From a bacterium (GTDB lineage: Bacteria; UBA8248), in NCBI GenBank assembly GCA_965213625.1, contig CBDBZU010000004.1, positions 3,488,001 through 3,552,000 of the forward strand: 64,000 nucleotides of DNA, given 5' to 3'. The notes under the pieces were generated by a model. That model was not told the origin of the DNA, ran no database searches, and saw nothing but the letters and a program-made list of their open reading frames with translations. Both the position numbers and the translations under genes were made by a program. Shown piece after piece: positions 37,685-57,135 of the stretch; within the stretch, counting starts at the first letter, position 1; each line of letters opens with the position of its first letter.

Positions 37685-37741
37685 TATAGTAATATCAATA
37701 TTTTATATGCAAAAAATAATCTAAATTATGAACAAAATAAA

Positions 37742-37771
37742 TTGACATTGTGAATTCCAAAAGAATAAAAT
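37742..37771 (+). promoter_or_regulatory. Sigma70-type promoter for the RiPP precursor
   Basis: TTGACA-18 nt-TAAAAT with AT-rich upstream sequence, 60 nt before the ATG. Confidence 0.55.
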
Positions 37772-37830
37772 GAGAATTGAAGCCTAATTAGTTTGGTTGT
37801 GAGCATCTAACAATTTAAAGGGGTATAGTA

Positions 37831-38082
37831 ATGAGAAGCGGCGATGAAATGTTGAAGCAGATTGTAGATAAGTCCGCCCTGGACGCGGATTTCAGGCAAC
37901 AGTTGCTCGCAGACCCGAAGTCGACCATCAGTCAGGAATTGGGTATTACGATCCCCGATTCGATGAATATCATGGTCCATGAGAGCGACATGCAGACGGT
38001 GCATCTGGCGTTGCCCCCTGATCCGAATATCACCGAGGAGCAACTCGAAGCCATCTCGGCCGGTCTCTGCTGCTGCTGGTAA
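37831..38082 (+). CDS. srpE: NHLP (proteusin) RiPP precursor, core LCCCW
   Basis: Nitrile-hydratase-like leader (DADFRQQLLADPK, VHE...HLALPP), cleavage motif ITEEQLEAISAG, core LCCCW as recalled for the sponge-microbiome srp precursor. Confidence 0.92.
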   Translation: MRSGDEMLKQIVDKSALDADFRQQLLADPKSTISQELGITIPDSMNIMVHESDMQTVHLALPPDPNITEEQLEAISAGLCCCW

Positions 38083-38140
38083 ACCCGACAGCCCGAGATT
38101 AGCGGGGTCAAAGACGCGGAACAATTTGGACCCGCATAGT

Positions 38141-38190
38141 GCAAACAAAAACAACTCCTCGTCCCTACCGGGGCGAGGGTTTGTTTATGC
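38141..38190. terminator. Hairpin between convergent genes, possible bidirectional terminator
   Basis: A-rich run, CTCGTCCC-TACC-GGGGCGAG stem, then GGTTTGTTT. Confidence 0.45.
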
Positions 38191-38205
38191 CCGCTTGAGA
38201 CCGGA

Positions 38206-39324
38206 TTATGTGGAGACCGCTCCGGAAAGCACCATGTAAACATAGGCCTTGGCTTGCCTGAGCCGATTTCCGGAAATGACCAGTTTTATGTGGTGAATGC
38301 CGCGCAACATGAGAAACTGCCCGGTCCTGGCGAACAGAGTCGTCGGTTTCGAAACCCAATCGGCAAGCGCCTCAATCTTTTCCGGAACGACAAAGTCCTC
38401 ATGGCTCAGGGCGTCGAGAAAGGGGTCCCAATCGGTCAGGCCGTCGAGCCAGTAACGTGAATCTTTCGTATATCTCTGCTTGACGATGAGCGTCAGGCCG
38501 AGCGTCGGACCGACACCGTCCGCCTGCACGTCAACATTCGCTCCGGTTCTCACAATATCCGCGCGTTCCTTGAAGCGTGAAATCAAAGCGTCTACGGCCG
38601 AGAGCCGACCCGGCCAGCCAATGTTCTCGAGATAGGAACAAATATCCCCCTGTGATTTGAAGCCCATGATCGCCAGGCGGATTGTGCGTTCGCGAGAGGG
38701 GAATATCCCGAAAGAATCCAGGCGCGTGTCTTCCGGCTGCGCCAGGTAAACCCGTTCGGCGTTTTTCCGTTCAGCGGCTATCTTTTCCCAGCCGACGCAG
38801 GAAACGAGGGCGTCAACCACGACTCCGACATCGGTCTGGAGGCCGTCGCCACCGGATAACGTGCGTTCGTTGGGCCGCAGGAACATTCCCGGCAGCGAAT
38901 CTTTACTTCCCGGCGCCGAATCTATGTCATATTCCAGCATCAATTTACGTCCCACAATCTCTCGCAGAGGCGAGTCCTGGGCTTCCATTTCCCTGAACAG
39001 CCGCCTGACCGCTCTCGCAGTTTTATCCGCCTCGTCGGTCCGCGCCCGCTCCTCGAAAAAATCGCCTGACCGGTTTCCGCTCGCCAGCGAGACGCCGAAA
39101 TCCGCCGCCGGCCGACTGTCATGCAGAGGCAGTTCGAAGCCGAACGGCTGGGCGCCCATGGTAATGGGAAGTCGGCTCGCACGTTCCAGTATGCGCCCCC
39201 ACTCCCGCTCTCCGATAAGAGTCGGAGAAATTCTGCTTCGAAATTGCCCGAGCAATTCAGCCATGGTGCCGCCTTCTTGGACGAGGCGGTCCTGGGTAAG
39301 CGCGACTGCTTCGTCGATATCCAT
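38206..39324 (-). CDS. Uncharacterised RiPP-cluster protein, possibly prenyltransferase-fold
   Basis: AAGGAGG SD, 9 nt after the YcaO stop; motifs FGFELPL..ADFG, LEYD, HHIKL..AKAY. The fold is inferred. Confidence 0.6.
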   Translation of the reverse strand: MDIDEAVALTQDRLVQEGGTMAELLGQFRSRISPTLIGEREWGRILERASRLPITMGAQPFGFELPLHDSRPAADFGVSLASGNRSGDFFEERARTDEADKTARAVRRLFREMEAQDSPLREIVGRKLMLEYDIDSAPGSKDSLPGMFLRPNERTLSGGDGLQTDVGVVVDALVSCVGWEKIAAERKNAERVYLAQPEDTRLDSFGIFPSRERTIRLAIMGFKSQGDICSYLENIGWPGRLSAVDALISRFKERADIVRTGANVDVQADGVGPTLGLTLIVKQRYTKDSRYWLDGLTDWDPFLDALSHEDFVVPEKIEALADWVSKPTTLFARTGQFLMLRGIHHIKLVISGNRLRQAKAYVYMVLSGAVST

Positions 39325-39333
39325 ATTGCCTCC

Positions 39334-41688
39334 TTACGCGATCACGGGTGCGGGATTCAAATCGGCTTCGGCCAGGGAGCGCTTCAGGCGGCCCATGCCG
39401 ACAGGAACGTCGTACAGGCGCCCGGGCGCGAATCTTGGCCAAAAATGACGCATGCCCGGTACGATGACCCGCGCAACCGGCATACCGATGTCCGGCCGGG
39501 TCTGGTCCAGCACGAGGAACTCCATGCCCCTGGCTTCCACCAACGATCGGCAATGTTCCACATCCTCAAGCGTGTCCGCGGATTCGATCACCGGATACTG
39601 TGAGCCTTGCTTGAGCGGCGCGTCCGGCGCCGACGCCAGCCAGGAACAATCGGCGATTCGAGCTGTCTTCCACCACGTGAGCGCCAAGGGATCGTCGATC
39701 ATCGGCCGGCCGTCGCCCCTTCCGGGACGCGGCAGCCAGGTAAGACATTGGTTCAACTCGCAAATCGCGCGCAGGGCCGCCAGTCGCGGGTCGGCATGAG
39801 CGCCTGCGCCGTATATGATGTCCTCGGTTTCCGCGTCCGGTCTGCGCGAGAGCGCAACGAACGAAGGGATACCAATGTCGGAAGTAACGTCGAGCATCCA
39901 CACTTCCCGCTCGTAGCGACCATAATAATCCGCGGCCGATGCCAGGAATTCATCATCAAAACTGGAGAGATCGACCCCGGGCGCTCTCAGCCCGTTATAC
40001 CACCAGATGGCGAACGCATCGCGCTCGACCAGTTCATAGAAGCCTTGCAGGATGGCCTCCTCCAGGATGTTCCCTGCGGCGCAGCCGTTCGAGTCGGCAA
40101 TCAGTTCGGCATCTCCGCGCTGTTCGGCAGACATGCTGTAGAGCATCGACGTCGGCAGATAGCGATGCCGCCGCTGCGTGAACGACCACACGGGCGTCCA
40201 GTCGATTGCGGCATCGGGCTCGAGACGCGGCGGGACGATGTTGTACGGGTGGCCTTTCGCGTTGATCCTCTCCGCGTCGTCAAGCTGACCCTCGCTGAAA
40301 AGCTGCGCATCGTTGGGATGGATAGCCTCGTCTTCTGCGGCGAAGTCGACGAATCGCTTGCGGATGCGTATCTCGTCTCCGCAATATGCGCCCGAATAAC
40401 GCTCTAGCGCCTCGCATAGGGCGCTGGCCTCGGATTGTTCCCGCGTGCTGCCCTTGCCGGCGCTCTTGCTGCGCAGGCTGCGCCTGAGCGAACTCAGGCT
40501 CCGGCTTCTCGTGGCGGGATTGCTTCCGGCCCAATAGACGTGCAGCCAGGAATCGCTCTCGTCGGTAGTGCGCGTCAGCCAGGTGACGACCCCGCTGATC
40601 GGGCTCACCAAGTGGCGGTATTTCGTCAGGGTGGCTTCCGGCGTCACGGCCCGCGCACCACCGCTGTTGCGATGGGTTTTGGGACTCGATTTCAGGCGCA
40701 GCGGCGCAGGCTGCCGGTCCGGCCGGTACAACGCCTCGTCGCCACAGGCCGGGCACTGCGGGCGGCGCGTCACTGCGTGCTGCGAACTTGTGAACGAGCC
40801 GAGGTTCATCGCTATTGCCCTCTCGTGAATCGGGGCCGCCTCTTCCAGCACCAGCCATTTGACGATTTCGGCCGCTATCAGCCCGTACAAGGCTTCGAGC
40901 GCCGTCGGCTCCGCCGCAAACGGCTTGAAGGCGGCTTCCTCTCCGGCAACGCTACGCAGGAAATTGTGGACCTCCTTATGACTGCGCAGGCGGTGAACCA
41001 GACATTCCCAGCAGGGTCCTTGTCTATCCGCGCGGAAGACGGGGCCGAACAGCGCCTCCATGCCGTGCGGCCGCACCAGCGTCCACGGCGCTCTCGCCTC
41101 GAGGCGGCGCCGATTCACGTCTTCAAACCGTGCTTCGAGATAATCGTCGCAGACGATAACGGTGAGCCGTGGATCGCAGGCCGCCACACAGACGCCGCTC
41201 TCTTCCAGATGCCGGACGAGGCGGCCGTCGTCACCTTCGACCGCGATGCGCGATTCCGCCAGCCGCCCTTCGACCCAGCGGGGCGATGCGCCGAGCGAGG
41301 TCCAATAGGCCGCACGAGGTCGGTCCATGCCATGATCGGCGGAGACGACGTAGCCCCTGTCGGAGAGTGAAACAACCGCCGCATGAACGTTAGCGGCGGC
41401 ATGGCGGCCATCGAGGGCGGCGACAATCCCGGCAAGCGGGCGCCGGTCGCCCAGAAGCGGTAGCAGGTCGCAATACAGGCCGCCGTGCAGCAGGGTATCG
41501 AACGACTCGGAAACCAGCAGCGTCTGCTGCTCGTCAATTTCGTGGAACTGCAGGTGCGGGGTAAGCGCGGGGAACTCGACGAGGCCTTCGTCCGCTGGGG
41601 TCGTTTTCGTCAATATCCCGCGTCTTGGATTCATTTTCGTCTGCGACGTCTTGCGGGAATTCCGCGTCTGCTCAATCGGCGCCTTCAT
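39334..41688 (-). CDS. srpC: Fused E1-like/YcaO cyclodehydratase (TOMM type)
   Basis: ATGA overlap with the upstream stop; GP.F...GPCWECL, RRPQCPAC, SAGKG, CEALERYS, DSNGCAAG, ELVERDA, Pro-rich C-terminus PAPVIA. Confidence 0.92.
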   Translation of the reverse strand: MKAPIEQTRNSRKTSQTKMNPRRGILTKTTPADEGLVEFPALTPHLQFHEIDEQQTLLVSESFDTLLHGGLYCDLLPLLGDRRPLAGIVAALDGRHAAANVHAAVVSLSDRGYVVSADHGMDRPRAAYWTSLGASPRWVEGRLAESRIAVEGDDGRLVRHLEESGVCVAACDPRLTVIVCDDYLEARFEDVNRRRLEARAPWTLVRPHGMEALFGPVFRADRQGPCWECLVHRLRSHKEVHNFLRSVAGEEAAFKPFAAEPTALEALYGLIAAEIVKWLVLEEAAPIHERAIAMNLGSFTSSQHAVTRRPQCPACGDEALYRPDRQPAPLRLKSSPKTHRNSGGARAVTPEATLTKYRHLVSPISGVVTWLTRTTDESDSWLHVYWAGSNPATRSRSLSSLRRSLRSKSAGKGSTREQSEASALCEALERYSGAYCGDEIRIRKRFVDFAAEDEAIHPNDAQLFSEGQLDDAERINAKGHPYNIVPPRLEPDAAIDWTPVWSFTQRRHRYLPTSMLYSMSAEQRGDAELIADSNGCAAGNILEEAILQGFYELVERDAFAIWWYNGLRAPGVDLSSFDDEFLASAADYYGRYEREVWMLDVTSDIGIPSFVALSRRPDAETEDIIYGAGAHADPRLAALRAICELNQCLTWLPRPGRGDGRPMIDDPLALTWWKTARIADCSWLASAPDAPLKQGSQYPVIESADTLEDVEHCRSLVEARGMEFLVLDQTRPDIGMPVARVIVPGMRHFWPRFAPGRLYDVPVGMGRLKRSLAEADLNPAPVIA

Positions 41689-44081
41689 GCACGCGAAACG
41701 AGCGTATCGATGCGGGCGGCGGCGCTGGATGCGGTTTCGGCGACCGCCGACGCCAGCGCATCGAAATCCTCCTGACCGCAAGCGTTCGCAACAAGAGATT
41801 TGACCTTCGGCCCTGCCGCCGTCGCGTCGAACCCTTCCTCGCCGACAAGGCGCATGACGCCCTGTAAATCCCGCCACATGGCCGCGGCTTGCGCCAGCGG
41901 CTCGGCGCCTGCGGCTTCGAACACCGCCGCGGCGGTCGGCGCCGGATCGTCGAAGTCGCTTCCGGCGCGCACCAACTGCAGGTAACGCGCGACCTTCTCG
42001 ACATCGTTCAGCCCGCCGCGCATCCGGGCGTATGCGGACACGCCTGTTTCGGCAGGGTCTTCCGTCCGCTCGCTCAACCGGGCGAGCAAAGACTCGTTCG
42101 CCCTGCATTCGGCCAGTACCCGGCGCCGCGCCTCATCGAAGCGACCTTCGATATCGGAACCGCCATACTCGAACACGCAACGCGCCCTGGTGAGGGCGGG
42201 CACTTCGCCTGAAGTCGAATCTCCATAATGTTCGGCCAGTTCGGAAAGCGGCAACTCAAGAATGGAATTCGAGCCGGGCGGGACCGGAGAGAACAACAGG
42301 CTGTCCTGCGCCAGGTCGGTCAGGGCATCTCGGAAACTTTGGCACACTTGTTCGTTTTTGCCGGACCGCAGACCGTCATGGACGAGCAGCATATCGATTC
42401 CAACACCGGGATAAGCTTCCCGGCTGGCCAGATCGCCCAGGAAAACGGCAGCGACTCCACCCACACTCAGCATTCCGAACCGGTCGACATAATCCGCGAC
42501 CACGGAGGCGAGCACGGTCGCAACCGATGCTTCGGCGAGATTCGACAGCGCCGTTCTCGCTTCCGCTGGCAACAGGTTTCCGCGCATCACGTGCATACCG
42601 ATCTGAAACGCCTTGTCGTTCGACCAGTTTCGCACGATTTCAGCGGTCTCCCTCGCATCGGCCACCGGCAGTTCGGCGACCAGACCCTTCAATTCCTGAA
42701 CGTCCATTTCGTAAGTCCAGTAGACTCTCGCAAGCCCGCGCCGCGCAATCGATTCGTATTCATCATCCGGCCCGAACCCCTTCGGCAGGTCGAGGTCGAG
42801 GAATTCCTGGTCTTGCAGGTTGTCCAGAAGTTCCGGGTTCCGCTCAACCCGTTTGGCAAGCCTCGGGGCGGCGCCGAAGATTTCGAGTATCGCGTCAAAG
42901 GCGTCGGGCCGCGCCGCGGCAATCGGGCTGTCGTAGGGGCCCCAGTCGTCAACCTCCGGATAGAAATGTTCGCGCCATTGGTCCACCAGCGGGTCCATCT
43001 TCTCGAACCAGCGCTTGGGCCGCAGCACGATGTTCATCATGTCGGCGTAGGTTCCCGGCAACTCCGGCGACTCATCGAGGCCGCTGACCTGCAGCAGCGG
43101 ATACTGGCGCGACGCCACCGCATGATGATCCGCATGGCGCTGCATATTGAAAAACATCCAGTTGCTGAACTTCCAGTCCGCGCTCCAGGAATGGCGCGGC
43201 ATCGCCTTTTCCCAGCGACCGTTGTCCAGACGGACCCGGCGCAGGCCGTAGTGTTGAAAGTAGTTGCTCATCTTCATCGAAAAGACGCAGGACAGACCGA
43301 GGAAGACGAAGACGGGAACGGCCCAGATCCCGCCCATCCAGTAAACCAGTCCGTACCAGAACGCGACGCCGACGACGTAGCGCCAGAACGGATTGTCGTA
43401 ATGCCACACGGGCAAACGCCGCCGCGCCAAGCGTTCTCTTGCGACTTCCCAGGAATGGACGAGGTTGCTGACAACTTCCTTGGGTAGATATCTCCAGAAA
43501 CTTTCCCCCTTCGGAGCGGACCCGACGTCATACGGCGTGCCGACCAGGGCATGGTGAATATAGACGTGCTCCGTGGCGTATTGCGGATAGGAGACGGTGG
43601 CGAGCAGGAATTCGCCCACCCGGCGTTCCCAGGTCGTGCGCCGGTGAATCATTTCGTGGCCGACTACGAATACGGCTTGCGCTTCCATCGTCAGGATGAT
43701 CGCCAGGAGCACGCCTTCCCAGATGGAGAATTGATCCGCCGCCAGGATTTGCCACATACCGAAAATGAGCGTCGGCGGCCACAGAAACGACCACGACCAG
43801 ACCGGCAGATTGTGCCAGAACAGGCGGTGCTCCGACGTATTCGCCGGGTCCATGTTTTGTCCGTCCCGACCCAGCACCTTATCAAGCGACCCCGCAACAC
43901 TCATAAAAACGAGCGGCGGCAGCAACCACCAGCCTCCATTGTACGCGCCGAGAAGAATCAGCGGAAAAACGACCAATGGCAGATAATGCGGAAGAGCGGT
44001 CAGAATGGACGGCTCGATACGCTGAACGGCTTCGGCGTCGCCTAGACCGGAGCCACCACTTGCTACGGGACTTTGTGGCAT
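41685..44081 (-). CDS. AlkB-like membrane di-iron monooxygenase/desaturase fused to a degenerate GlnE-like nucleotidyltransferase domain
   Basis: His boxes HEMIH, EHVYIHH, NYFQHYG, QRHADHH with TM helices; C-terminal LGDLASRE...IDMLLVHD, LTRARC, RGGLNDVE..ARYLQL. Confidence 0.8.
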   Translation of the reverse strand: MPQSPVASGGSGLGDAEAVQRIEPSILTALPHYLPLVVFPLILLGAYNGGWWLLPPLVFMSVAGSLDKVLGRDGQNMDPANTSEHRLFWHNLPVWSWSFLWPPTLIFGMWQILAADQFSIWEGVLLAIILTMEAQAVFVVGHEMIHRRTTWERRVGEFLLATVSYPQYATEHVYIHHALVGTPYDVGSAPKGESFWRYLPKEVVSNLVHSWEVARERLARRRLPVWHYDNPFWRYVVGVAFWYGLVYWMGGIWAVPVFVFLGLSCVFSMKMSNYFQHYGLRRVRLDNGRWEKAMPRHSWSADWKFSNWMFFNMQRHADHHAVASRQYPLLQVSGLDESPELPGTYADMMNIVLRPKRWFEKMDPLVDQWREHFYPEVDDWGPYDSPIAAARPDAFDAILEIFGAAPRLAKRVERNPELLDNLQDQEFLDLDLPKGFGPDDEYESIARRGLARVYWTYEMDVQELKGLVAELPVADARETAEIVRNWSNDKAFQIGMHVMRGNLLPAEARTALSNLAEASVATVLASVVADYVDRFGMLSVGGVAAVFLGDLASREAYPGVGIDMLLVHDGLRSGKNEQVCQSFRDALTDLAQDSLLFSPVPPGSNSILELPLSELAEHYGDSTSGEVPALTRARCVFEYGGSDIEGRFDEARRRVLAECRANESLLARLSERTEDPAETGVSAYARMRGGLNDVEKVARYLQLVRAGSDFDDPAPTAAAVFEAAGAEPLAQAAAMWRDLQGVMRLVGEEGFDATAAGPKVKSLVANACGQEDFDALASAVAETASSAAARIDTLVSRA

Positions 44082-44163
44082 GTCAGCTCCTTTACAGTAA
44101 ACAGATTTGAACCCTCAGGCCGGACGATATTTTATCCCCGAATACCTGAACCTGCAAGGAATT

Positions 44164-45465
44164 TCAGGTCCGCAAGATTGCGAGGAGACGTTCGAGAGCT
44201 TCGATACAAAACGCCGTGGTCACGGATTCTGAGCCATGTCCTATCCGCCCTACCGTACCCCACTTCAACGTTTGGTCGCCAAACGCGAGAAGCTCCGGCC
44301 AGCTACCGTCCTCACGCTGCGAACCCGTGAACCTCTCCACCTCGCGTTTCGCGTCGACGCCGTCGAGGCGTCCAACATGATGGAGCGCCGAGACGGCCTG
44401 AGCCGTTTGGAGGATGTTGCCGAATTCCCCTTCCTCGTCCCGCAAGCCCAGGATGCGCTCCGCTAGTATCGGGCGCAGCCGGTCGAGAGCGGGCCGTGCG
44501 CGAATCATGGCGCGGGCGGTCGCATAGCAGATCGCGACCTCGTCGGGATACCATTTCGACGATCCCTCGAGATTGCCTTCGGTTATCAAGGCTTCCAGCC
44601 ACCTTTGGGCATCCCTGGTTTCTGGACAGTCGCCGAGATAGGCAATGACGTTCGCATTGACTACAGGGTCGGCTTCGATACGAAAGCGCGATACCACATC
44701 GGGTTCGTCGTCTTCGAGAACCCAGGTCATGAAGCGGCCTTCCTCGTCGCGATTCGCCAGTATCTGCGGAACGTTCCTCCCCAGTAAAATCCAGAGGTGG
44801 CCTCCAATCACGAGTGAACACAGTGCGGTGCTGTCGAGATCCTGGGGCAGGTGGCGATAATAGCGCCACAATCCGGGATATTCGATAGTGTCGACGAGAT
44901 ACGCCCTTGTCGCAGCGCATATGGCCCTGGCGCGCGCTTCCTCGCAACATTCGAGAGCCAGGGCGCAGAAAGCCGAAATAAAGGGAGGTCTTTCGAAATG
45001 CCTCGGTATATCCGGATCGCCCAAGTTGAACCGGATACAATGCCAGGCTCCGTTCTCGTCTATCGTGGATTCCAGGAAACCAAGACCGCGGCGGATGCTT
45101 TCTCCACCCGCTTTCGCCAGCGCCCCGGTGGTCGCGGCGTTCTTCGGGGTTCTCTCCCCTTGAAGTTTTGGCGGACGAAGGGGCGGCGCGGGGTCGTGCA
45201 TCGTTTTGCGAAGAAACTCGAGCGATTCCGCGCCGGTTTTCGCCTCCTCCCGTTCGGCCTCGGTGAATTTGCTGCGCGGCGGAAGGACGAGGTGCGTCGT
45301 GGTATAGGTTTCTTCGTGTACGTGAATCTCATGGTCTTCGGCCATCGACACGCCAAATTCCGCTTCGATGGTCTCTTTGGGCTTGGCGAGAAGACGTTCC
45401 CGGAATTCGTAGTCGCCGCCAGCTCGCGATATGAGGGAATCAACCAGGCCAAAAGGCTTCTTCAT
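44164..45465 (-). CDS. NHLP leader-like domain fused to a prenyltransferase/squalene-cyclase-type alpha-alpha barrel
   Basis: N-terminal DYEFRERLLAKPK...VHEE...HLVLPP; QW-like repeats DENGAW, RDEEGRF, RDEEGEF, QREDGSW; DLDST motif. Confidence 0.75.
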   Translation of the reverse strand: MKKPFGLVDSLISRAGGDYEFRERLLAKPKETIEAEFGVSMAEDHEIHVHEETYTTTHLVLPPRSKFTEAEREEAKTGAESLEFLRKTMHDPAPPLRPPKLQGERTPKNAATTGALAKAGGESIRRGLGFLESTIDENGAWHCIRFNLGDPDIPRHFERPPFISAFCALALECCEEARARAICAATRAYLVDTIEYPGLWRYYRHLPQDLDSTALCSLVIGGHLWILLGRNVPQILANRDEEGRFMTWVLEDDEPDVVSRFRIEADPVVNANVIAYLGDCPETRDAQRWLEALITEGNLEGSSKWYPDEVAICYATARAMIRARPALDRLRPILAERILGLRDEEGEFGNILQTAQAVSALHHVGRLDGVDAKREVERFTGSQREDGSWPELLAFGDQTLKWGTVGRIGHGSESVTTAFCIEALERLLAILRT

Positions 45466-45540
45466 CGATATCTACTCCATATTCGCGGGCCTTGGCCGAA
45501 CATGCATTTTTTCCGCCGAGTTATCGTCTCCATATTCGGA

Positions 45541-48483
45541 TCAAGCGATTTGCCTTTTTATCAATTCCTTGAATACCCCGTCCACCTCCTTGAGTTCGCT
45601 GAAGGAACCGCTTTGTACGACTTTCCCGGCTTGCAGCACGTAGATGCGGTCGGCCTGTTCCAGCGTGGACAGGCGGTGGGCAATGACGAGGCGGGTGGAA
45701 GTCAGGGCGGCAAGGTTTTGCATTATCTTGGCCTGGCTTTCGTTATCCAGCCAGTTCGTCGCCTCGTCCAGCAACATGATTCGCGGGCTGCCGATCACCG
45801 AGCGGGCGATGGTGATGCGCTGGCTCTCGCCGCCCGACAGGACAGACCCGCTGGTGCCCACCATGGTCATCATGCCCATGGGCATGTCCTTGATTTGGGC
45901 TTCAACTTCGGCGGTACGGACCGCCGACCATACTTCATCGATCGTCACCGCATCATGGTGACTGACCAGATTGTCCCAGAGATCCTGTGGATGGAGCCCG
46001 ACGGATTGCGGCACAGCGCCAATTTTCTTGCGCACCTGTTTCAGATTCAGGTGCTTCAGGTCGCGGCCGTCGTAATACACCGCGCCGGCGGCCGGCAAGT
46101 CGATACCGAGCGCGAGGCGGAACAGGGTGCTCTTCCCTGCGCCGGACTCACCGGCAATCGCGACGAATTCGCCGGGACGGGCGTGAATCGAGACGTCGTC
46201 GAGAATCAACGGACCGTCGGGATCGTAGCGGAATGAAATGCGGTCGAACAGTATTTCACCGCCCAGGTATTCAACCGGCTCTCCTTCCGTCACGGTTTCA
46301 GGGACTGCGGAGAGCAGCGGACGCATCTGCTGGAACGCCGGACGCATGGCGGCAATTGCGCCGAAGGACTCGCCGAGCCGGGCGATGGCGGACTGGAAAA
46401 CGATAAAGACCGTGTAAACGACGAGAAAATCGCCGACCGGAATGTTTCGGTCTTCGACCGCCACCACCGAAAAAAGCAGCACCCCGCCGGCAAGAAAAGG
46501 GAGCGCGGCGCCGAATGCGCGCGAATGTCCCTCGAGCGCGCCCAGTTCTATCTCCGCGCGCTTCTGCTCACGATAGCCCCTCGCCCAGATGGCGTAAGCC
46601 GACCCTTCCGCATTATCCATTCGCAGCTTGGAGATGCCCCCCACGATCTGGAACAGTCGGCCGGCTACGCGACGCGCTGCGCTGAGCATCCGCCCATAAG
46701 GTGAAATCTGGCGCCACCCGAGGACTACGGTGACCAGCAGGGAAGCCAGGCTGAAGACGAGGGTGATGACGCCGAGGATGGCGTCGTACAAAAAAATGAC
46801 GCCAAAAACCGGAATCAGAAATATAATCGACAGAAAGCTGTTGGCGACGACTCCCTGCAAGCCATCGCGAAGATTCTGGAATGTCATTCCCGACATGGCC
46901 AGGTCGCCGGATGGATGGCGGTGCAGAATGCTTGGCGGAAGGCGCATGAGACGGTCCCAGAAGGCGGCTTCGAGCCGAGATGCCGAGCGCCCCTCGAGCC
47001 GCATCATCGCCGTGCTTTGAAGCAGGTGCAGCAGCGCGCCGAGAAGGCCGAACGCCGCTAACGCCACGGCAACGGTATAGAGCGTTCCTATGCTTCCGCC
47101 CGCCAATATCTGATTCGCAACGAACCCGAGCGCGAGCGCCGGCAGCAGATTGAGCAGACCGTATGGAAGCCCGGAAATCACCAGCCGCGCCAAATCCGAA
47201 GCCGACCCGTTCAGCGCGATTCCCAGCAGGTCCGCCGGTTTCACGTCCCTCGAGGGCAATGGCCGATAGAACATCCACGCCTTCTCCCCCAGCGCATCCG
47301 CGCGGTCCGCCGTTACCCGGACACTGCGTTTGCTGACCGGGTCGATTTCACGGTATCGCCCGAACATTCCCGGCAGCAGCGCCACGGGCCGGCCGTCCTC
47401 GGCGCGAAACGCCAACATCGCGTTGCTGTCGCCGCGCCACCAGCCGCCCTCGGCATTGAATCGCACACGCCGGGCGCGTACGCCCGACGCATCGAGAACC
47501 TCGACGAGGCCGACCGGAGAACCGGAAAGCCCCGAGCGCGCCGGTATCTTGAAATCGATTCCTTCATGGCGGCCGATGTGTTGCAAGGCATCCGCCAGCG
47601 CCGTGTCCTCGATACCGGCATCCCGGTCAATCGGAAGGTCATAGATATTGAAGAGCCGCTGCCGCGCGGCTTTTTCGGCCGTGCGGCGGCTGGTTGTCCG
47701 CGCGCGTTCGAGATTGACGTCATCGACCACGACCAGTCGGCGGTTCAGGCGTTCCAGGGAGAAAGCAACCGCGTGAAACGAGGCGAGCGCCGGCAGCAGC
47801 ATACCTTCCTCCGCCAGTGTCTCGGTAGATTTGCCCGTCAGCGTCGCCTCGTCGAACAAGGTGAGCCAGCTTGTGCGCGTCAGCGGAACGAGAGCCTCGT
47901 GTGAGCCGCTCGCCTCCGCAATTTCCGCCGAGTCGATAATACCCATGAACAGGCTCGCGCCGAGCGGCGGTTCGGATACCCATACAACACCGCGCCGTAC
48001 GGATAGCGTACATGGAGCCGGGGTCTGCGTCAGACCGGGTTCGGCCAGCGCGGTCGGACGCGGAAGGGGGCTTGCAAAACGCGAGAGTGTTTCCGTAATG
48101 GCGATCAGCCAGGTATCGGCCTGTTCCGCCAATTCCGATGGGTGAACCTGGGACAGCAAAGAAGCCGGCAGACGTCTCAATTTGGTGCCCGGCAGTCCTT
48201 TGGCGATAATACGGAGCGTATTGTCCTCGCCATTGTCCCGTTGGTCCGGCGCCACGCCCGGCAGCAACCAGCCCGATTCCCGGCGCAGCAGATGCTGCGG
48301 CGCCGCCTGCTCCACCCCGTCTTTGAATTCGACCAGGAACAGATTAACGGCGCCCTGTTCGATGAACCAGACGCTGTCCGGGTCGTCGAGCTTGGCCGGC
48401 AGGTTGCCGGCGCAGGGAACGGACGCGCCGAAGCGAGCGGCGAGTTCGGCGATTGACGTGTATTCCGGCTTTGAATGCTGCAT
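45541..48483 (-). CDS. NHLP bacteriocin-system ABC transporter permease/ATPase with N-terminal cNMP-binding-like domain
   Basis: VWFIEQGAVNLF N-domain, TM domain, GESGAGKST, LSGGESQR, LLDEAT. Confidence 0.9.
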   Translation of the reverse strand: MQHSKPEYTSIAELAARFGASVPCAGNLPAKLDDPDSVWFIEQGAVNLFLVEFKDGVEQAAPQHLLRRESGWLLPGVAPDQRDNGEDNTLRIIAKGLPGTKLRRLPASLLSQVHPSELAEQADTWLIAITETLSRFASPLPRPTALAEPGLTQTPAPCTLSVRRGVVWVSEPPLGASLFMGIIDSAEIAEASGSHEALVPLTRTSWLTLFDEATLTGKSTETLAEEGMLLPALASFHAVAFSLERLNRRLVVVDDVNLERARTTSRRTAEKAARQRLFNIYDLPIDRDAGIEDTALADALQHIGRHEGIDFKIPARSGLSGSPVGLVEVLDASGVRARRVRFNAEGGWWRGDSNAMLAFRAEDGRPVALLPGMFGRYREIDPVSKRSVRVTADRADALGEKAWMFYRPLPSRDVKPADLLGIALNGSASDLARLVISGLPYGLLNLLPALALGFVANQILAGGSIGTLYTVAVALAAFGLLGALLHLLQSTAMMRLEGRSASRLEAAFWDRLMRLPPSILHRHPSGDLAMSGMTFQNLRDGLQGVVANSFLSIIFLIPVFGVIFLYDAILGVITLVFSLASLLVTVVLGWRQISPYGRMLSAARRVAGRLFQIVGGISKLRMDNAEGSAYAIWARGYREQKRAEIELGALEGHSRAFGAALPFLAGGVLLFSVVAVEDRNIPVGDFLVVYTVFIVFQSAIARLGESFGAIAAMRPAFQQMRPLLSAVPETVTEGEPVEYLGGEILFDRISFRYDPDGPLILDDVSIHARPGEFVAIAGESGAGKSTLFRLALGIDLPAAGAVYYDGRDLKHLNLKQVRKKIGAVPQSVGLHPQDLWDNLVSHHDAVTIDEVWSAVRTAEVEAQIKDMPMGMMTMVGTSGSVLSGGESQRITIARSVIGSPRIMLLDEATNWLDNESQAKIMQNLAALTSTRLVIAHRLSTLEQADRIYVLQAGKVVQSGSFSELKEVDGVFKELIKRQIA

Positions 48484-50693
48484 CAGCCCGACATGACTTG
48501 CTTGTAATAGGCGCCATCCCGATCCGCGAACAACTCGTCGTGCGTGCCGCGTTGCACCGTGACGCCCTTGTCGAGCACGATGATTTCATCGCAATCCCGC
48601 ACGGTGCTCAGCCGGTGCGCCACGATCAGGCAGGTGACGCCGCGACGCCGCAGGGCGTCATCGACATCTTCTTCCGTTGCCGCATCGAGTGCGCTGGTGG
48701 CCTCGTCCAGAATGAGCACCGTCGGATTGCCCACCAACGCACGGGCGATTTCCAGACGTTGCCGCTGGCCGCCGCTGAAATTCGCCCCGCCTTCTTCGAC
48801 GAGGGTCGAATATCCCTGTGCTCTATGCAGGATTTCGTCATGGATCCGGGCATCTCGCGTTGCGGCGAAGAGGACCTCATCCGGAACGGCCGGGTTCCAC
48901 AGCGTGATATTGTCGCGCAGGGACGCAGAGAAGAGCACGACCTCCTGATCCACCATGGATATGGACTGCCGCAGCACTTCCTCCGGAATCTGATTCCGCA
49001 GGTGTCCATCGAAAAGGATTTCGCCCGACCAGGGCTGGTAGACGCCCGAAACCAGGCGCGCCAGGGTCGACTTGCCGGAACCGCTTGGACCGACCACGGC
49101 GACGCGCTGCCCCGGATTGATCACGAGGTTGAAGTCCCTTATCAAAGGAGGCCTGCTTTTGTTGAAACCGAATGTGACGTCTCGCAGTTCGAGCTGGCCT
49201 GCAAGCTGGAGCCGGCCGTTGAACGTGGGGATTGACTCCGATTCCGGGTTCCTGCGGCTGAAGACGGGATCCTCATCGGTGCTGGAGATGTCCTCGAATC
49301 GCTGCATATCGGTTTCGAGCGCCTGACGGGTTTCGGCGAATTCCAAAAAACGCCGGATGGGAGCCAGAAACATCTCCGCCAGGATATAGAACCCGACCAG
49401 CGTCCCCAGCGTCATGTCTCCGGTCATGACGAAACCGCCCCCGATGCCGAGAATCGCCGCGCTTCGGAGCGCGTCGATCAGACCCGGAAGCGAGGTATTG
49501 ACGGAGCCCAGTTCGGAGTAGAGTTGGCGCGCACGCAGTTCACGCGCCTGTTGACCGCTCCAGCGCGAAAAAAACCGGTCATCCGCACCCGTCATACGCA
49601 GATTGTCCGCATGACTCAACATCTGCATGCCGAGGCCAATCAGCAATCCCTGTTCACGCCTCATCGCCTGACTGCGCACCGCCCGTAGGGCGTTGAGAAA
49701 GTGGGCCAGCACTCCGTGCAGCAGGGCCAGAAAAAGCACGATCAGCGTGAGCAGGATATCGTAGGCGAACATCGCTACGAGCAACACCGCGCTCATCGCC
49801 ATATCGATAATGAGCACAAGAAACTGATCCGCCAGATTCCTGGCGATTCTGTCGGTGGACGAGACCCTATCGGTCAGATCCCCCGCCAGCCTGTGCTCAA
49901 AAAACTCCACCGGCAACCGCAGCAGCCGTGACATGCCGCGACTGTAGCCGACCACCGATACCCGGACTGCGAGCCGCTTGAGGAAGCGGTGCTTGAGCAA
50001 GGACAGGACGTATACCAGGACGCCGCCGCCAAGCAAGGCAATCACCAACCCGCCCCAGGACCCGTGTTTTTCCAGAACATCGTCGACGAAAACACCGAGA
50101 GATACGGGAATTATCAGCGTCAACAACGTTAACATGAGTCCGCAGGCGATCACCCCGGTAAGCAAACTCCATGATCCGGGGAGCAAGGCGCCCAATTGCC
50201 TGAACAAGTCGGGCCGCTCGCCCCCGGGACTGAAATCGGCGCCGCGCTTGAAGCGAAGCGCAATTCCGCTGTAGTCCTTGTTGAACTCTTCGGCGGAAAT
50301 CCTGCGCCGGCCCGTGGATGGGTCGTTGAGATAGAAATAACGGCCATCGAAACCTTCGAGGACGACGAAATGGCTGAATTGCCAGAACAAAATCAAAGGC
50401 AACTCCAGCATTTTCAGTTGATCGGCGAGTAAGCTGAACCCGCTGCATTCGAGACCATAGTGTCTCGAGGCGCGCAAGATGCTTGCGGCGCTGCTGCCGT
50501 CCCGGCTCACCTCGCATTTTTCGCGCAATTCGGTAAGCGACACCCACCGCCCGAAATAGGCCAGTATGATGCCGAGACAGGCGGCGCCACATTCCGACGC
50601 ATGCATCTGCAACAGAATCGGCGTGGTCACCTTCCGTTTCGATACGTCCGAAGAGGCCTTGTCCCCGGCGTCTTTGGAAGCGGCCGTCGGCAT
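48483..50693 (-). CDS. NHLP-family C39 peptidase/ABC transporter
   Basis: LQMHASECGAACL, HFVVLEG, NDP; GPSGSGKST, FSGGQRQR, ILDEAT. Confidence 0.93.
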   Translation of the reverse strand: MPTAASKDAGDKASSDVSKRKVTTPILLQMHASECGAACLGIILAYFGRWVSLTELREKCEVSRDGSSAASILRASRHYGLECSGFSLLADQLKMLELPLILFWQFSHFVVLEGFDGRYFYLNDPSTGRRRISAEEFNKDYSGIALRFKRGADFSPGGERPDLFRQLGALLPGSWSLLTGVIACGLMLTLLTLIIPVSLGVFVDDVLEKHGSWGGLVIALLGGGVLVYVLSLLKHRFLKRLAVRVSVVGYSRGMSRLLRLPVEFFEHRLAGDLTDRVSSTDRIARNLADQFLVLIIDMAMSAVLLVAMFAYDILLTLIVLFLALLHGVLAHFLNALRAVRSQAMRREQGLLIGLGMQMLSHADNLRMTGADDRFFSRWSGQQARELRARQLYSELGSVNTSLPGLIDALRSAAILGIGGGFVMTGDMTLGTLVGFYILAEMFLAPIRRFLEFAETRQALETDMQRFEDISSTDEDPVFSRRNPESESIPTFNGRLQLAGQLELRDVTFGFNKSRPPLIRDFNLVINPGQRVAVVGPSGSGKSTLARLVSGVYQPWSGEILFDGHLRNQIPEEVLRQSISMVDQEVVLFSASLRDNITLWNPAVPDEVLFAATRDARIHDEILHRAQGYSTLVEEGGANFSGGQRQRLEIARALVGNPTVLILDEATSALDAATEEDVDDALRRRGVTCLIVAHRLSTVRDCDEIIVLDKGVTVQRGTHDELFADRDGAYYKQVMSG

Positions 50694-50694
50694 C

Positions 50695-51246
50695 TTATGA
50701 TCGCCTCATTCGAAACAGCGCGATCGGAGATTGCCTGCCAAGCTCGAAGACAATCCGGCATTTCCCGCCCGCCAGGGAATTCAAATCCATACCTTCTTCG
50801 AGCGCGATATCGATGCGGCGCACGGACATCGGCGCCTTGGACTCAAGCGCCGCCAGCCCCCCGGAGAAGGGCACGGCGGAAATCGCCCTGACCTTTCCGA
50901 CAAGCGCGCCTGTTTTTCCATCGGCCGCATGCGGCTCGATCACCACCGGCATCCCGGCCTCGATATGTGAAGCGATATCGCTCTCGACCCAGACGAGGGC
51001 CCGTACGGACCGGCCGCCCCCGATCGGGTTTTCGCCTTGCTCGACCACTACGCCGTCCACCGCGAAACTACGAGCGACGCTGCCGAAGAAAAGCCATACC
51101 GAGAGGATGCACACCAAGAGAGCGATTGCGGCGACAATCAGACGCTCCCGAGGCGTTGAAATCGTCAGCAACCGGTCAAGTTGCTCGCGTTCTTCCTTTG
51201 CTTCGGCGACAATATTATGAAAAGAATCGAATGGATTATTGAACAC
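50695..51246 (-). CDS. Short NHLP-system secretion (HlyD-like) protein
   Basis: EQLDRLLTISTPR followed by a TM helix and WLFFGSV; GMPVVI...GKVRAIS; C-terminal SPIAL; GTG start. Confidence 0.72.
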   Translation of the reverse strand: MFNNPFDSFHNIVAEAKEEREQLDRLLTISTPRERLIVAAIALLVCILSVWLFFGSVARSFAVDGVVVEQGENPIGGGRSVRALVWVESDIASHIEAGMPVVIEPHAADGKTGALVGKVRAISAVPFSGGLAALESKAPMSVRRIDIALEEGMDLNSLAGGKCRIVFELGRQSPIALFRMRRS

Positions 51247-51664
51247 GACGGCAGGGCAACCCTCTCTTTGTAATCAAGCAAGGTAAAAAAACATCATACC
51301 ATCCGGTAAAAAGAAATGTAATTCTACACAATACGGCTCAAGAATCGTCGGCGTTTGGGAAGCAGTGGATTTCCGATGGGCGGAACAGGCCGTTCGTTTA
51401 CTCGTTTTCGGAATCAGTTACTCCGGGGAGCCGGCCACGAACCGCCCGCGCCTCTCGCGCCGCAACATTTCTCGAGGTCGCCCTCACGGCGACTGACATA
51501 CAAAATCACAGGGCGGGGACATTTTCAAATGCCTTCAATAGACGCCCTGCGCAGCAGGCAGACGATTTTCTCCGGTTTGCAGACCTTCCCCGTTATCATC
51601 GGTCCAGCATTTGCAAACCGGGGGGAATCGATCCTACGGCGCGGAATCAACCTTCGTTGAAATT

Positions 51665-52954
51665 TTACGAACCCGGCGCCTGACAGCCCAGCCCCTGGGA
51701 CATCTGGGCGTAACTGGTGAGCGGAAGCGCGCACATCCGCTCCCAGTCCGATTTGTCGATGACCGTCTGGTTTATCAGTTCGAGCATTTCGTCGAATTTA
51801 CGAAGCGCGTCGCAACCCACCACATCGGGGTCCGCCGCCTTGCGGTGTCGAGGCCAGGCTTTGTCTCTCGCATGGCGCCAGAATCTGCTGTCGTACCTGG
51901 AGCCGCAGGAATAGTGCCAACCGACGAACAGGCTGTAGCACAGCACGTTGTTGATGAGGAACCGATTGACCGCCGGCGCGTCGCGCTCGCGGTGTTCTAT
52001 CGGCCGGTTGAGACGCATATAGAGAACCGTCCCGACCTGCAACTGGGCGGACACGATCGCCGTTGCTTCGAGCGGCTCGATGAAGCTTGCCGCGTTGCCG
52101 ACGCGGGCCACCACGCCATCGTATATCCGGCGGTGGACGAAATTGGGAAACGGAATGACGGCGCGTTGCTCGAATTCCGATACGCCGTCGGTTTCGAGGA
52201 AAGCGTCGAAGTCCGATTCCACTTCCTCGAGGCCGGAAATGTCGCGGTTGAAGATGTACCCGTAGGAGGTATGTGATGCAAGCGGAATAACGAATATCCA
52301 ACCGTACGGACGCGCAACCGCCCGGGTATAGGTGTGTTGGAGAACCAGCCCGTCCCGCTCTTCTTCGACGGTTGCCGGACAGCGGCGGATGACGGCCGTA
52401 TTGGTGGGGATGAAGGAAACATCGATGTGCATTTCGGGGTCGAGTTCTGCGGGAAAGCCCCGGGCATCAAAGACCAAATCGTAGCGCTCCGCCGGCAGGC
52501 CCTCGAATTCCACTCGCGCGCCATCCTCCACCCTCGTGATACTAGTTACTTTCGCGTCGATGCGGCGCGCGCGGTTGCTTTCGCGAAGCAGGTCCGTGAG
52601 CAAGTCGACGGACAGATGGTAGGCATAGGACACCTGCTGCGGCGTGAAATAGTGGGTGAAGTCCTGATTGTGCCGGCCCCATCCCTCGAATGCGACACCA
52701 TACTTGCGCGTTCCTTTCAGGCGCCGCTGGACGGTTTCATGGGGCAAACGGGTCAGTTTGCGCAAATCCTGCACGAGGCTCGGCCAACTGCCTTCGCCCA
52801 CGCCGATGACGGGAATGCGCGAGTCATAGATGTGGTGCAGCTCGTGGTCGCTCTCGGGTAGAAGACGAGTCACATTGGCGGCCGCAAGGGACCCTGCGGT
52901 TCCTTGCCCGAGGACCGCGATTTTCCGTAAAGATTCTGCGCCCGGCTGTATCAT
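51665..52954 (-). CDS. srpI: Flavin-dependent tryptophan-halogenase-family enzyme (peptidyl brominase-like)
   Basis: GQGTAG FAD motif, IGVGEG, TRKYGVAFEGW (catalytic Lys region), GWIFVIPL, FIEPLEAT; clustered with a Trp-terminated precursor. Confidence 0.88.
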   Translation of the reverse strand: MIQPGAESLRKIAVLGQGTAGSLAAANVTRLLPESDHELHHIYDSRIPVIGVGEGSWPSLVQDLRKLTRLPHETVQRRLKGTRKYGVAFEGWGRHNQDFTHYFTPQQVSYAYHLSVDLLTDLLRESNRARRIDAKVTSITRVEDGARVEFEGLPAERYDLVFDARGFPAELDPEMHIDVSFIPTNTAVIRRCPATVEEERDGLVLQHTYTRAVARPYGWIFVIPLASHTSYGYIFNRDISGLEEVESDFDAFLETDGVSEFEQRAVIPFPNFVHRRIYDGVVARVGNAASFIEPLEATAIVSAQLQVGTVLYMRLNRPIEHRERDAPAVNRFLINNVLCYSLFVGWHYSCGSRYDSRFWRHARDKAWPRHRKAADPDVVGCDALRKFDEMLELINQTVIDKSDWERMCALPLTSYAQMSQGLGCQAPGS

Positions 52955-55914: not shown

Positions 55915-56068
55915 ACTCGTATATAATTCCCTTTGCAAAACCCCATTGGAGCAGGGGATAAGTTTCGAGGTTGCGTGAAGGTTGGAGGGATATAAGTGGA
56001 CAAGGGGGCGTTCCCTGCTATGTTGTGGTTATGAGCCCTACAACATCCTAAAGCGGAGGGAACGCCCC

Positions 56069-57135
56069 ATGTCCTTGGTATCGAGTTTAACCGACATCTG
56101 GAAGCGGTTTCAAGGTGAATTGTTTCCCAGGCTGTCCGAAGAGGTCGGCGAACTGCAAACGAAGCACAGGCGGCTGGTAGCCGTTCTCGACGTGGTTGCG
56201 GTGGAGGGCTTCGTCGGTGTGCGTAGCGGCGGGAGCGGTCGTCCGGCAGAAGACCGTGGGGCGCTGGCGCGCGCGTTCATCGCCAAGGCCGTATGGGACT
56301 TTCCGACCACGTCGCGTGTGACCCTGTGCTGCGGCGTCTGTGTGGCTGGTCGCGTGTGGGCGAGATACCGAGCGAATCGACGTTTTCGCGCGCCTTTGGA
56401 GAGTTCGCGCGGAGCAGGCTGCCCGAGCGGATGCACGAGGCCGTGGTCAAGGCGGCGTTTGAGGAGACGATTGTCGGTCACATCTCACGCGATTCGACCG
56501 CTATTGACGTTCGTGAGAAGCCCGAACCCAAAGACGGGAAGGCGAAACGGCCGAGCCGGCTGCAGCGGCAGTTGCGCATGGACCGCGACACGATGCTGGA
56601 TGAGTTGCCGACGGCCCCGACGGTTGGCTTGAGGAAAAACGCGAAGGGCTTTCTTGAGACCTGGAGGGGTTACAAGCTGCATGTGGACGCCGCCGACTCC
56701 GGGGTTCCCATTAGCTGCCTGTTGACCTCGGCCTCCCTGCATGACAGCCAGGCGGCCATCCCCCTAGCGACCCTGAGCACGGAACGGGTGACATACCTCT
56801 ATGAACTGATGGATGCGGCCTACGACAGCAAAGAGATCGGCCGGCACAGCTACCTCTCAGGTCATGTTCCGATCATCGACGTCAACACCCGCCGGGACAA
56901 GGAGCGTAAGAAGGAACGTGCCAGGGAGGCTCGCGCCCGGCGCTGCGCCGGATATAGCGACCCCCGAAGAGTGCGCTACAACGAACGCTCCACAGTCGAA
57001 CGCGTGAACAGCCGAATCAAGGATTCCTATGGCGGGCGCCACGTCCGCGTGCGGGGCCATGAGAAGGTCTTCTGCCACCTGATGTTCGGTGTCCTCGCCC
57101 TCACCGTCGATCAGCTCATGCGCCTGACGCTCTGA
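56069..57135 (+). pseudogene. Frameshifted transposase of IS copy 2
   Basis: 19 nt deletion (GCGGGACTTGATGGACCGC) near 56310 relative to copy 1, between GACCAC/GACCGC microhomologies. Confidence 0.9.

Follow-up and report, generated by a model that had tools for sequence, protein, structure and literature searches.

What does an srp gene cluster make when three unexplained enzyme genes stand among its precursor, cyclodehydratase and exporter genes? We studied this question at positions 37831-52954 of a 64,000 nt stretch of contig CBDBZU010000004.1 (the window in the following), from the genome of a bacterium of the lineage UBA8248. The srp gene clusters (SrpE, SrpC, SrpI) of marine sponge microbiomes were reportedly described by Nguyen et al., JACS 2021. 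A first-pass annotation of the window had proposed an srp-type proteusin cluster with a prenylated, cyclised and oxidised product, and the interpretation of the three extra genes is supported in silico at fold or motif level for each step, by an ABBA prenyltransferase fold, by a class II terpene cyclase fold with its Asp motif and by the His boxes of an AlkB-type enzyme. On balance we consider it probable that the product is a five-residue brominated tris-thiazoline peptide with a cyclised, oxidised terpene, made by the route set out below. The cluster as such is already published, and the functional reading of the three unexplained genes is a testable variant of known chemistry.

The published srp cluster (sponge-derived RiPP proteusin, where RiPP stands for ribosomally synthesised and post-translationally modified peptide) is present here in full, bracketed by two copies of an insertion sequence (IS). 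Precursor, YcaO, Trp_halogenase and NHLP exporters are all encoded. The srp-type cluster of the first-pass annotation is confirmed, and the bounds given there are exact, with the precursor starting at 37831 and the halogenase at 52954. The 252 bp precursor gene contains ITEEQL and encodes a peptide ending in ...ITEEQLEAISAGLCCCW*, where the core LCCCW follows an AG double-Gly-type site; the peptide scores 69.8 bits against the NHLP leader model TIGR03793, for which the cut-off is 50.9. When 52 copies were aligned, the columns were on average 92% identical; L79, C81, C82 and W83 were invariant and C80 was conserved in at least 90%. For comparison we searched one genome per prokaryotic species for relatives of the precursor, which gave 251, and kept 80 loci, with precursors 87-95% identical to that of the window.

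The srp clusters of sponge microbiomes are treated in PMC10286304, PMC10858898, PMC12615548 and bioRxiv 10.1101/2023.06.09.544420, all of which are cited here from their available sections. There, SrpE has the core LCCCW, the YcaO enzyme SrpC forms three thiazolines, and SrpI is a leader-dependent obligate brominase acting on indole C6 of the terminal Trp (PMC10286304, PMC12615548). A 252 bp srp precursor gene with ITEEQL and LCCCW is transcribed across many phyla in sponges, and is among the most highly transcribed biosynthetic genes of their microbiomes (bioRxiv 10.1101/2023.06.09.544420). What the first-pass annotation had stated about the LCCCW core of SrpE, the SrpC thiazolines and the SrpI bromination of the terminal Trp agrees with PMC10286304 and bioRxiv 10.1101/2023.06.09.544420, and its remark that the mature product is not known to have been identified is in line with the available sections of the srp literature searched, in which we found no identified product.

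The cyclodehydratase consists of winged-helix (RRE-like) and E1-like leader-binding domains followed by YcaO, with matches to PF02624 (2.1e-90), to the TOMM leader-binding model TIGR03882 (6.6e-41), and also to TIGR03604 and PF21084. Its open reading frame (ORF) is open to 42108 (924 codons), but the probable start is M141 at 41688, whose ATG shares an ATGA with the stop codon of the gene before it. The reading of 924 amino acids (aa) was rejected because the first 140 residues are an Arg-rich alternative frame of the 3' end of the AlkB-like gene. The halogenase belongs to the Trp_halogenase family (PF04820, 8e-44), its PDB matches include the MibH entry 5uao (1.9e-19), and orthologues 68-82% identical to it are present in 41 of the 80 loci. 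Of the NHLP secretion adaptor, the N-terminal membrane anchor alone is matched by the mini-HlyD, which is kept at about 183 aa in 28 of the 80 related loci and is thus no local truncation. SagB-type azoline dehydrogenase (TIGR03605) gave no match in the 96.6%-complete genome, with the same search matching 9 of 14 control genomes, so that the absence of an FMN azoline dehydrogenase, first remarked for the cluster, holds for the whole genome. In summary, the locus resembles srp clusters in its 83-aa NHLP precursor with ITEEQL and LCCCW, the YcaO and Trp halogenase-family enzymes, the absent azoline oxidase and the multi-phylum spread. It does not differ in the core genes; it differs in being bracketed by two IS and in having a truncated twin elsewhere in the genome.

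The three extra genes, which encode proteins of 372, 433 and 798 aa, are core srp genes. They are all on the minus strand together with the YcaO and exporter genes, which bears out their earlier description as co-oriented. Genes were counted by a filtered tblastn search of the window proteins against the 80 loci, many of which are cut by contig ends; 49 loci with 10 kb on both sides gave a full view. The gene for the 372-aa protein was found in 68 of the 80 loci (44 of the 49 in full view), YcaO in 62 (44), the cyclase-like gene for the 433-aa protein in 58 (46), the AlkB-like gene for the 798-aa protein in 48 (34) and the halogenase in 41 (26), while the 372-aa and cyclase-like genes occurred together in 54 (42). 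The first-pass annotation had raised the possibility that the extra enzymes are not conserved across srp clusters, and this was checked: the genes are conserved, in 44, 46 and 34 of the full-view loci. The prevailing gene order in related loci is precursor, 372-aa gene, YcaO, AlkB-like gene, cyclase-like gene and ABC2, the same as in the window, and the cluster is not a chance grouping, since precursor relatives recur with the same neighbours in the same order. In L029, L032-L034, L037, L052 and L069, for example, the 372-aa and cyclase-like genes stay at the precursor, with YcaO and AlkB genes elsewhere or outside the view. The srp loci come from metagenome-assembled genomes labelled Alphaproteobacteria, Gammaproteobacteria, Chloroflexota, Acidobacteriota, Gemmatimonadota, Nitrospinota, Binatia and others, at least seven phylum-level labels, and small shares of the 64-kb stretch occur in public runs labelled sponge metagenome; no RNA run was among those listed.

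Homology searches with the 372-, 433- and 798-aa proteins returned, among the matches listed, close srp orthologues only, unnamed or 'hypothetical'. The 372-aa protein has no Pfam or NCBIfam match, none of 75 family members matches the prenyltransferase Pfam families, PF11991 (Trp_DMAT) and PF11468 (PTase_Orf2) included, at E<=1, and a metagenome scan with the single protein found no distant relatives. The family is large in our searches, with 694 representatives at 50% clustering at E<=1e-3 and 255 at E<=1e-10. An AlphaFold2 (AF2) model from the 75-sequence alignment reached a pLDDT of 95.0 and a pTM of 0.93 and contains five alpha-alpha-beta-beta repeats, in agreement with the ten-stranded antiparallel barrel of ABBA enzymes. 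When this model was compared with the PDB by Foldseek, 96 matches were obtained at E<=0.001, and the best 33 of the 96 were all ABBA prenyltransferases. The ABBA matches listed are NphB/Orf2 (7fhf, 2.6e-6), EpzP, AmbP1/AmbP3, 6-DMATS, 5-DMATS, DMATS1 (TM 0.54), FunA, IptA, PriB and CloQ, and the cyanobactin enzyme PagF is also among them. The nearest named clusters in the protein language model Atlas, which we take as leads only, include Trp_DMAT (0.91) and PTase_Orf2 (0.89). Residues D75, D133, R211, R216, K316, H345, K347 and Y361 are near-invariant in the family and would suit binding of diphosphate and metal. By fold, and not by sequence, the 372-aa protein is predicted to be a new, uncurated branch of the ABBA prenyltransferases; its gene adjoins the precursor in most related loci.

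A link between this family and peptides comes from a sister clade. The same genome encodes a paralogue of the 372-aa protein, 30% identical, at L009 8021-9716 (G000:C4:1399021-1400716), which adjoins a different NHLP precursor with the core SQTMLDFANAWNSLNQNS after AG, containing an invariant NAWN; no cyclase, YcaO, exporter or other terpene genes lie near it. A profile of the sister clade, run against 51 genomes of the window's phylum, matched in the window's genus only, in this genome and in 15 of the other 21 scored there. We examined 19 loci: the sister-clade prenyltransferase adjoins an NHLP-type ORF in 17 of them, and the other two (L109, L119) have none within 1.5 kb of the gene. All 19 such NHLP ORFs have Trp in the core and one of the 19 has Cys. 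The cores read ..(F/L)xNAWNSLNQNS in 16 loci, with a second ORF in L107, and GTPWV and DMDWCTSSGAV in L108; the genome with L108 (G024) has eight sister-clade matches, and its L108 holds two other Trp-containing precursors. Trp is the sole residue common to the sister-clade cores and LCCCW. It should be noted that these genomes are close kin, and what they tell is the evidence of one lineage and not independent. Indirectly, the sister clade appears to tie the prenyltransferase family to NHLP peptides and to Trp.

The 433-aa protein starts with a homologue of the precursor leader. Residues 1-78 share 36% identity with the precursor over 72 aa, score 44 bits against TIGR03793 (under the cut-off), and also match nitrile hydratase alpha chains and the solved NHLP leader 8tb1. 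Gly78 is invariant and has the same index as the cleavage-site Gly of the precursor, and it opens a highly conserved, Pro-rich linker, G78-A-x-S-L-E-F-L-R-K-T-x-x-D-P-A-P-P. The two leaders differ in their signals: at -4/-7 of the double-Gly signal the precursor has I and L where the 433-aa protein has A and R, and the L(X)4L stretch is ITEEQL in the former but FTEAER in the latter.

Residues ~111-433 form a single alpha/alpha toroid, mostly with pLDDT >90 (AF2). Its top Foldseek matches were the drimenol synthase AsDMS (9m7f, 6.3e-10), the monodomain cyclase MstE (merosterolic acid synthase, 6sbg), the small squalene-hopene-cyclase-like proteins 8pak and 8paj, the drimenyl diphosphate synthase SsDMS and squalene-hopene cyclase (SHC). 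A profile of the toroid alone matched AsDMS by sequence as well (7.7e-6), with 'hlpqDLDSTalc' aligned to 'nfpDDLDTTsmv' and also to DADST of 8paj. The entry of the AsDMS mutant D333N reads N at the column of D211, so D211 corresponds to the general acid of AsDMS. D209, L210, D211 and S212 are invariant in 54 orthologues (66-91% identical), as are many pocket residues, and T213 is conserved in at least 90%. The fold and the motif together lead us to predict that the 433-aa protein is a class II terpene cyclase with D211 as putative general acid. More than 1000 close relatives in a large protein collection share the fused architecture of ~433 aa.

We also predicted the complex of the 433-aa protein with the precursor. 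The score was 0.49, against 0.05 for the best control, with runs agreeing in at least 85% of contacts and a partner pLDDT of at least 70. With 80 solved complexes and 110 mismatched pairs as reference, the mark set for such predictions was passed by 58 of the former and 2 of the latter; at scores <=0.60 it was passed by 7 of the 80 solved complexes and both mismatches. The prediction, which gives no interface, weakly favours binding of the cyclase to the precursor. A further step would be that the leader copy is functional, that is, that the terpene cyclase carries the leader of its substrate in cis, which we regard as possible but doubtful. Such a copy would dock on the precursor or on the YcaO machinery, or replace the leader once it is cut, and would let a class II cyclase act on a five-residue lipopeptide. 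In a bolder variant, the exporter would recognise the leader of the cyclase and the cyclase would act outside the cytoplasm.

For the 798-aa protein the two halves tell different stories. Residues 51-368 match structures of AlkB (8f6t, 4.1e-47; 8sbb, 5.6e-36), all His boxes of the eight-His di-iron motifs of AlkB (HxxxH, HxxxHH, HxxHH) and its NYxxHYG are present, and HEMIH, EHVYIHH, NYFQHYG and RHADHH are invariant in 42 sequences. The C-terminal half (~395-798) has a weak match to GlnE (Pfam, 5.5e-6; 3k7d, 2.5e-4), in which the catalytic 'SSDLDLIF' of GlnE aligns to 'GVGIDMLL'. The first Asp of the DxD is thus replaced, and the stretch is <70% conserved in the 42 sequences; residues 370-530 are well conserved, and the AlkB/GlnE-like fusion is the rule in the family. 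These motifs predict an intact di-iron hydroxylase of the AlkB type joined to a GlnE-like domain that is catalytically degenerate. The idea that the GlnE-like half still transfers AMP was considered and rejected, the nucleotidyltransferase site (G-x-G...DxD) being lost.

Put together, these assignments suggest the following route. YcaO would turn the three Cys of the core into thiazolines and the flavin halogenase would brominate the C-terminal Trp, both as reported by others for the srp enzymes; with the azoline dehydrogenase absent, the rings would stay thiazolines. The ABBA-fold enzyme would add an isoprenoid, most likely C15 or C20, and most likely to the Trp indole. The class II cyclase would then cyclise the chain by protonating its distal double bond through D211, the leader-like domain perhaps holding the enzyme near the precursor or the processing machinery. 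The AlkB-type enzyme may hydroxylate the terpene, or may epoxidise the chain before cyclisation, in which case the cyclase would protonate the epoxide, and the GlnE-like half would be a non-catalytic relic. Finally, the C39 exporter would cut after Ala-Gly and export the five-residue lipopeptide. The genome encodes two polyprenyl diphosphate synthases, at C4:1542857 and C4:1563514, which lie 9 and 30 kb from the second copy of the cluster (see below). For the 79Br tris-thiazoline core M is 650.0803, and the predicted [M+H]+ is 855.2754 with a C15 and 923.338 with a C20 chain, or 871.2703 and 939.3329, respectively, with one added oxygen.

Several observations weigh against this reading. At the peptide stage, SrpC is sluggish and selective in vitro according to the available sections of PMC10286304. 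For the prenyltransferase, the profile of the 372-aa family found no prenyltransferase among PDB sequences, the Foldseek TM-scores were modest (0.38-0.56), and the assignment is one by fold. The N-domain and linker of the cyclase are poorly modelled, with pLDDT <50 across much of residues 52-108, and the predicted binding to the precursor gives weak support. Rubredoxin is the classical electron donor of AlkB, and rubredoxin PF00301 gave no match in the genome, with the same search matching 7 of 14 control genomes. Within the 10-kb view, AlkB is missing from 15 and YcaO from 5 of the 49 full-view loci, and the cluster variants would not all have one and the same product. Lastly, the best matches of the cyclase, drimenol and drimenyl-diphosphate synthases, use free farnesyl diphosphate (FPP), and cyclisation could accordingly precede transfer.

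That last order of events is one of two alternatives that survive best. Free farnesyl or geranylgeranyl diphosphate would be turned into a cyclic (drimenyl-type) diphosphate and the ABBA enzyme would transfer this to the peptide, in keeping with the use of free FPP by AsDMS and SsDMS, which the cyclase domain matches best in structure and profile. A leader-like domain, on the other hand, makes little sense on a cyclase that meets only a diphosphate, and the weak in silico binding of cyclase to precursor points the same way, as do MstE and the cyclase domain of the peptide-modifying enzyme NctPC, both of which act on chains already transferred (PMC13290415, available part). We find cyclisation before transfer unlikely.

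The other concerns the acceptor, which could be a Cys thiol before cyclodehydration, a thiazoline, or the N-terminal amine after leader removal, in place of the Trp indole. The available part of PMC13290415 describes ABBA and cyanobactin-type prenyltransferases as alkylating N, O, S and C nucleophiles, and CCCW resembles a C-terminal CaaX box. Conservation alone picks no prenylation site, as C81, C82 and W83 are all invariant, and the second cluster copy has the core LSCCW. Still, 18 of the 19 sister-clade NHLP ORFs have no Cys in their cores and all have Trp, SrpC converts all three Cys to thiazolines (PMC10286304, available sections), and Trp_DMAT is among the nearest named Atlas clusters of the 372-aa protein. 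We would give an acceptor other than the indole a small chance, and keep Trp as the most likely site.

A third explanation is that the three genes are travelling neighbours which make or remodel some other terpenoid or lipid, one that might serve self-protection or membrane adaptation. A peptide substrate has been demonstrated for none of the three enzymes, AlkB-type enzymes normally act on lipids and alkanes, and some loci are without one or more of the three genes within view. The arrangement of the genes speaks for a common pathway: the spacing is operon-tight, with the ATGA overlap of the AlkB and YcaO genes, and in the prevailing architecture the prenyltransferase gene directly adjoins the precursor. 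Moreover, the paralogous prenyltransferase is again a neighbour of NHLP precursors, in surroundings that contain no other terpene genes, and the cyclase is fused to a leader copy. Independent neighbours therefore seem very unlikely. The weakest alternative is that the toroid protein is non-enzymatic, a leader-tagged binding, scaffold or immunity protein or exporter cargo, which would suit an N-domain that spans the whole leader and the invariant Gly78 exactly at the cleavage-site Gly position but is hard to believe with the DLDST acid motif and many pocket residues invariant in the 54 orthologues and with A and R in place of the hydrophobic I and L at -4/-7. Because of the same non-hydrophobic positions, export of the 433-aa protein as cargo is by itself given a low chance.

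Prenylation and cyclisation of a peptide are already published for two fused enzymes, NctPC and ChrPC (PMC13290415, citing Hubrich et al. 2024). As described in the available part of PMC13290415, NctPC joins an ABBA prenyltransferase and an MstE-like cyclase in one protein; it attaches a geranylgeranyl chain to a Trp in a ribosomal peptide before cyclising it. In ChrPC the cyclase is fused to a prenyltransferase of the trans-IDS-like type. PMC13647313 uses 'steromaze' as a product name. The srp enzymes are similar to NctPC in an ABBA fold little like the cyanobactin enzymes, an MstE-like monodomain cyclase and a ribosomal peptide, with Trp as the presumed acceptor here; this comparison draws on the fold and on the published description of NctPC. 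They differ in that prenyltransferase and cyclase are here separate genes 4.8 kb apart with YcaO and AlkB between them, fused in none of the 80 loci, in that the fusion partner of the cyclase is a leader-like NHLP domain and not the prenyltransferase, and in the thiazolines, the bromination, the AlkB-type oxygenase and the five-residue core. The peptide in Hubrich et al. 2024 is said to be a proteusin.

The cyclase shares with MstE and the class II domain of AsDMS a single alpha/alpha toroid of ~320-350 residues and the general-acid motif DxD(S/T)T; the identity to them is only 15-21%, the substrate is presumably a prenylated peptide, and the N-terminal leader-like domain is added. The 798-aa protein has the membrane di-iron fold, all His-box motifs and the NYxxHYG of AlkB alkane 1-monooxygenase (8f6t, 8sbb), and differs from it by having no rubredoxin domain or gene, by the GlnE-like extension of ~400 residues and by its place in a RiPP operon.

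In the literature searched, which did not include the founding srp paper, Hubrich et al. 2024 or supplements, we found no link of srp or LCCCW to prenylation or terpene cyclisation, and the term 'prenyl' has 0 occurrences in PMC12615548, bioRxiv 10.1101/2023.06.09.544420 and PMC12537861. New here are the IS bracket, the partial second copy with its LSCCW precursor, and the sister prenyltransferase clade paired with Trp-containing NHLP precursors. If the proposed pathway is true, searches for a small polar bromo-thiazoline peptide are aimed at the wrong mass and polarity, and exact mass targets for product searches can be set. It would also add new peptide-lipidating enzymes, namely a Pfam-less prenyltransferase family, a leader-tagged cyclase and an AlkB-type oxygenase. 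Should the leader copy be functional too, the most widespread and most transcribed sponge RiPP would be a brominated thiazoline-terpenoid hybrid, a scaffold not yet described.

The cluster consists of nine genes, one plus-strand precursor and eight convergent minus-strand genes (Table 1). The latter are transcribed in the order halogenase, HlyD stub, C39 ABC exporter, second NHLP ABC exporter, 433-aa, 798-aa, YcaO and 372-aa gene, and are closely spaced, with gaps of 1, -1, 75, 82, -4 and 9 nt, whereas 418 nt separate the halogenase gene from the HlyD stub. A promoter-like sequence of the precursor gene adjoins the left IS copy on its inner side; this consensus match is consistent with the very high transcription of the precursor gene in sponges described in the available sections of bioRxiv 10.1101/2023.06.09.544420.

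Table 1. Position, strand and supporting matches of the srp cluster genes and bordering elements in the window
Feature	Position	Strand	Basis or remark
Left IS copy, intact 390-aa DDE_Tnp_1 transposase	36236..37688	-	borders precursor promoter
Sigma-70-like promoter of the precursor gene (consensus match only)	37742..37771	+	TTGACA, 18 nt, TAAAAT; 11/12
srpE-type precursor, 83 aa	37831..38082	+	TIGR03793, 69.8 bits
Terminator-like hairpin	38156..38179	+	within the 123-nt gap of the convergent precursor and prenyltransferase genes
372-aa predicted ABBA (PT-barrel) aromatic prenyltransferase	38206..39324	-	fold; no Pfam model
SrpC-type cyclodehydratase, E1-like + YcaO	39334..41688	-	PF02624, TIGR03604, TIGR03882, PF21084
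798-aa predicted AlkB-type di-iron hydroxylase / GlnE-like fusion	41685..44081	-	FA_desaturase and GlnE matches
433-aa leader-like domain + class II terpene cyclase-like toroid	44164..45465	-	NHLP-like N-terminus, weak SQHop_cyclase_C match
NHLM ABC2, permease/ATPase subunit, long N-terminal extension	45541..48483	-	TIGR03797, 1.9e-199
NHLP-type ABC1 exporter with C39 leader peptidase domain	48483..50693	-	TIGR03796, 3.1e-254; PF03412, 7.4e-34
183-aa mini-HlyD	50695..51246	-	TIGR03794, 3.2e-9 over residues 21-71
SrpI-type flavin-dependent Trp halogenase, 429 aa	51665..52954	-	PF04820, 8e-44
Right IS copy, inverted, transposase split into two ORFs	55922..57355	+	97-98% identical to left copy

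The two inverted IS copies (1051 nt at 98% and 390 nt at 97%) flank 18.2 kb with the whole cluster, like a composite transposon. One further fragment of the same IS was found in the genome (C4:1958234-1958787), and none of the 80 related srp loci contains the IS transposase.

A second, partial copy of the cluster is present at G000:C4:1524947-1534019 (L008 7947-17045), corresponding to positions 37804-46914 of the window. Over 8704 nt (window 38211-46914) it is 99.97% identical, with 3 mismatches, and comprises the prenyltransferase, YcaO, AlkB and cyclase genes and the 3' half of ABC2; it ends inside ABC2 and is without ABC1, the HlyD stub and the halogenase. Its precursor, with the LSCCW core, is 88% identical at the DNA level. 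The break in identity at the end of the prenyltransferase gene suggests that gene conversion or duplication took place recently. In four public runs, contigs span the boundary at 38211 with no differences, and the word depth is ~2-2.9x inside the repeat, which is consistent with two copies, though depth is no copy number. The genome, which has no rubredoxin match, encodes two copies of the intact AlkB-type enzyme.

Two more SrpE paralogues, identical to each other and 92% to that of the window, with the core LCCCW, are found at C4:21465-21713 and C4:4117548-4117796 (L010 and L011). They are without srp enzymes and lie in a repeat of ~11 kb together with a 411-aa ORF, near both ends of the 4.13-Mb contig; the repeat might be genuinely duplicated, or the assembly might be circular with its overlapping ends left untrimmed.

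The interval from the halogenase to the right IS copy (53446-55600) contains a 151-aa ORF that belongs to no Pfam family and has a hydrophobic stretch at its N-terminus. An IS1595-family transposase (54102-55043) and, after it, a SocA/Panacea antitoxin-domain protein (55163-55600) are also encoded there, and the GC fraction goes down to 0.45 at 54001-56000. Other mobile or defence-like genes nearby are a YspA/SLOG-domain protein (27179-28135), a 1094-aa UvrD-type helicase with two topoisomerase-type zinc ribbons (29628-32912) and a group II intron-type reverse transcriptase (58569-59909).

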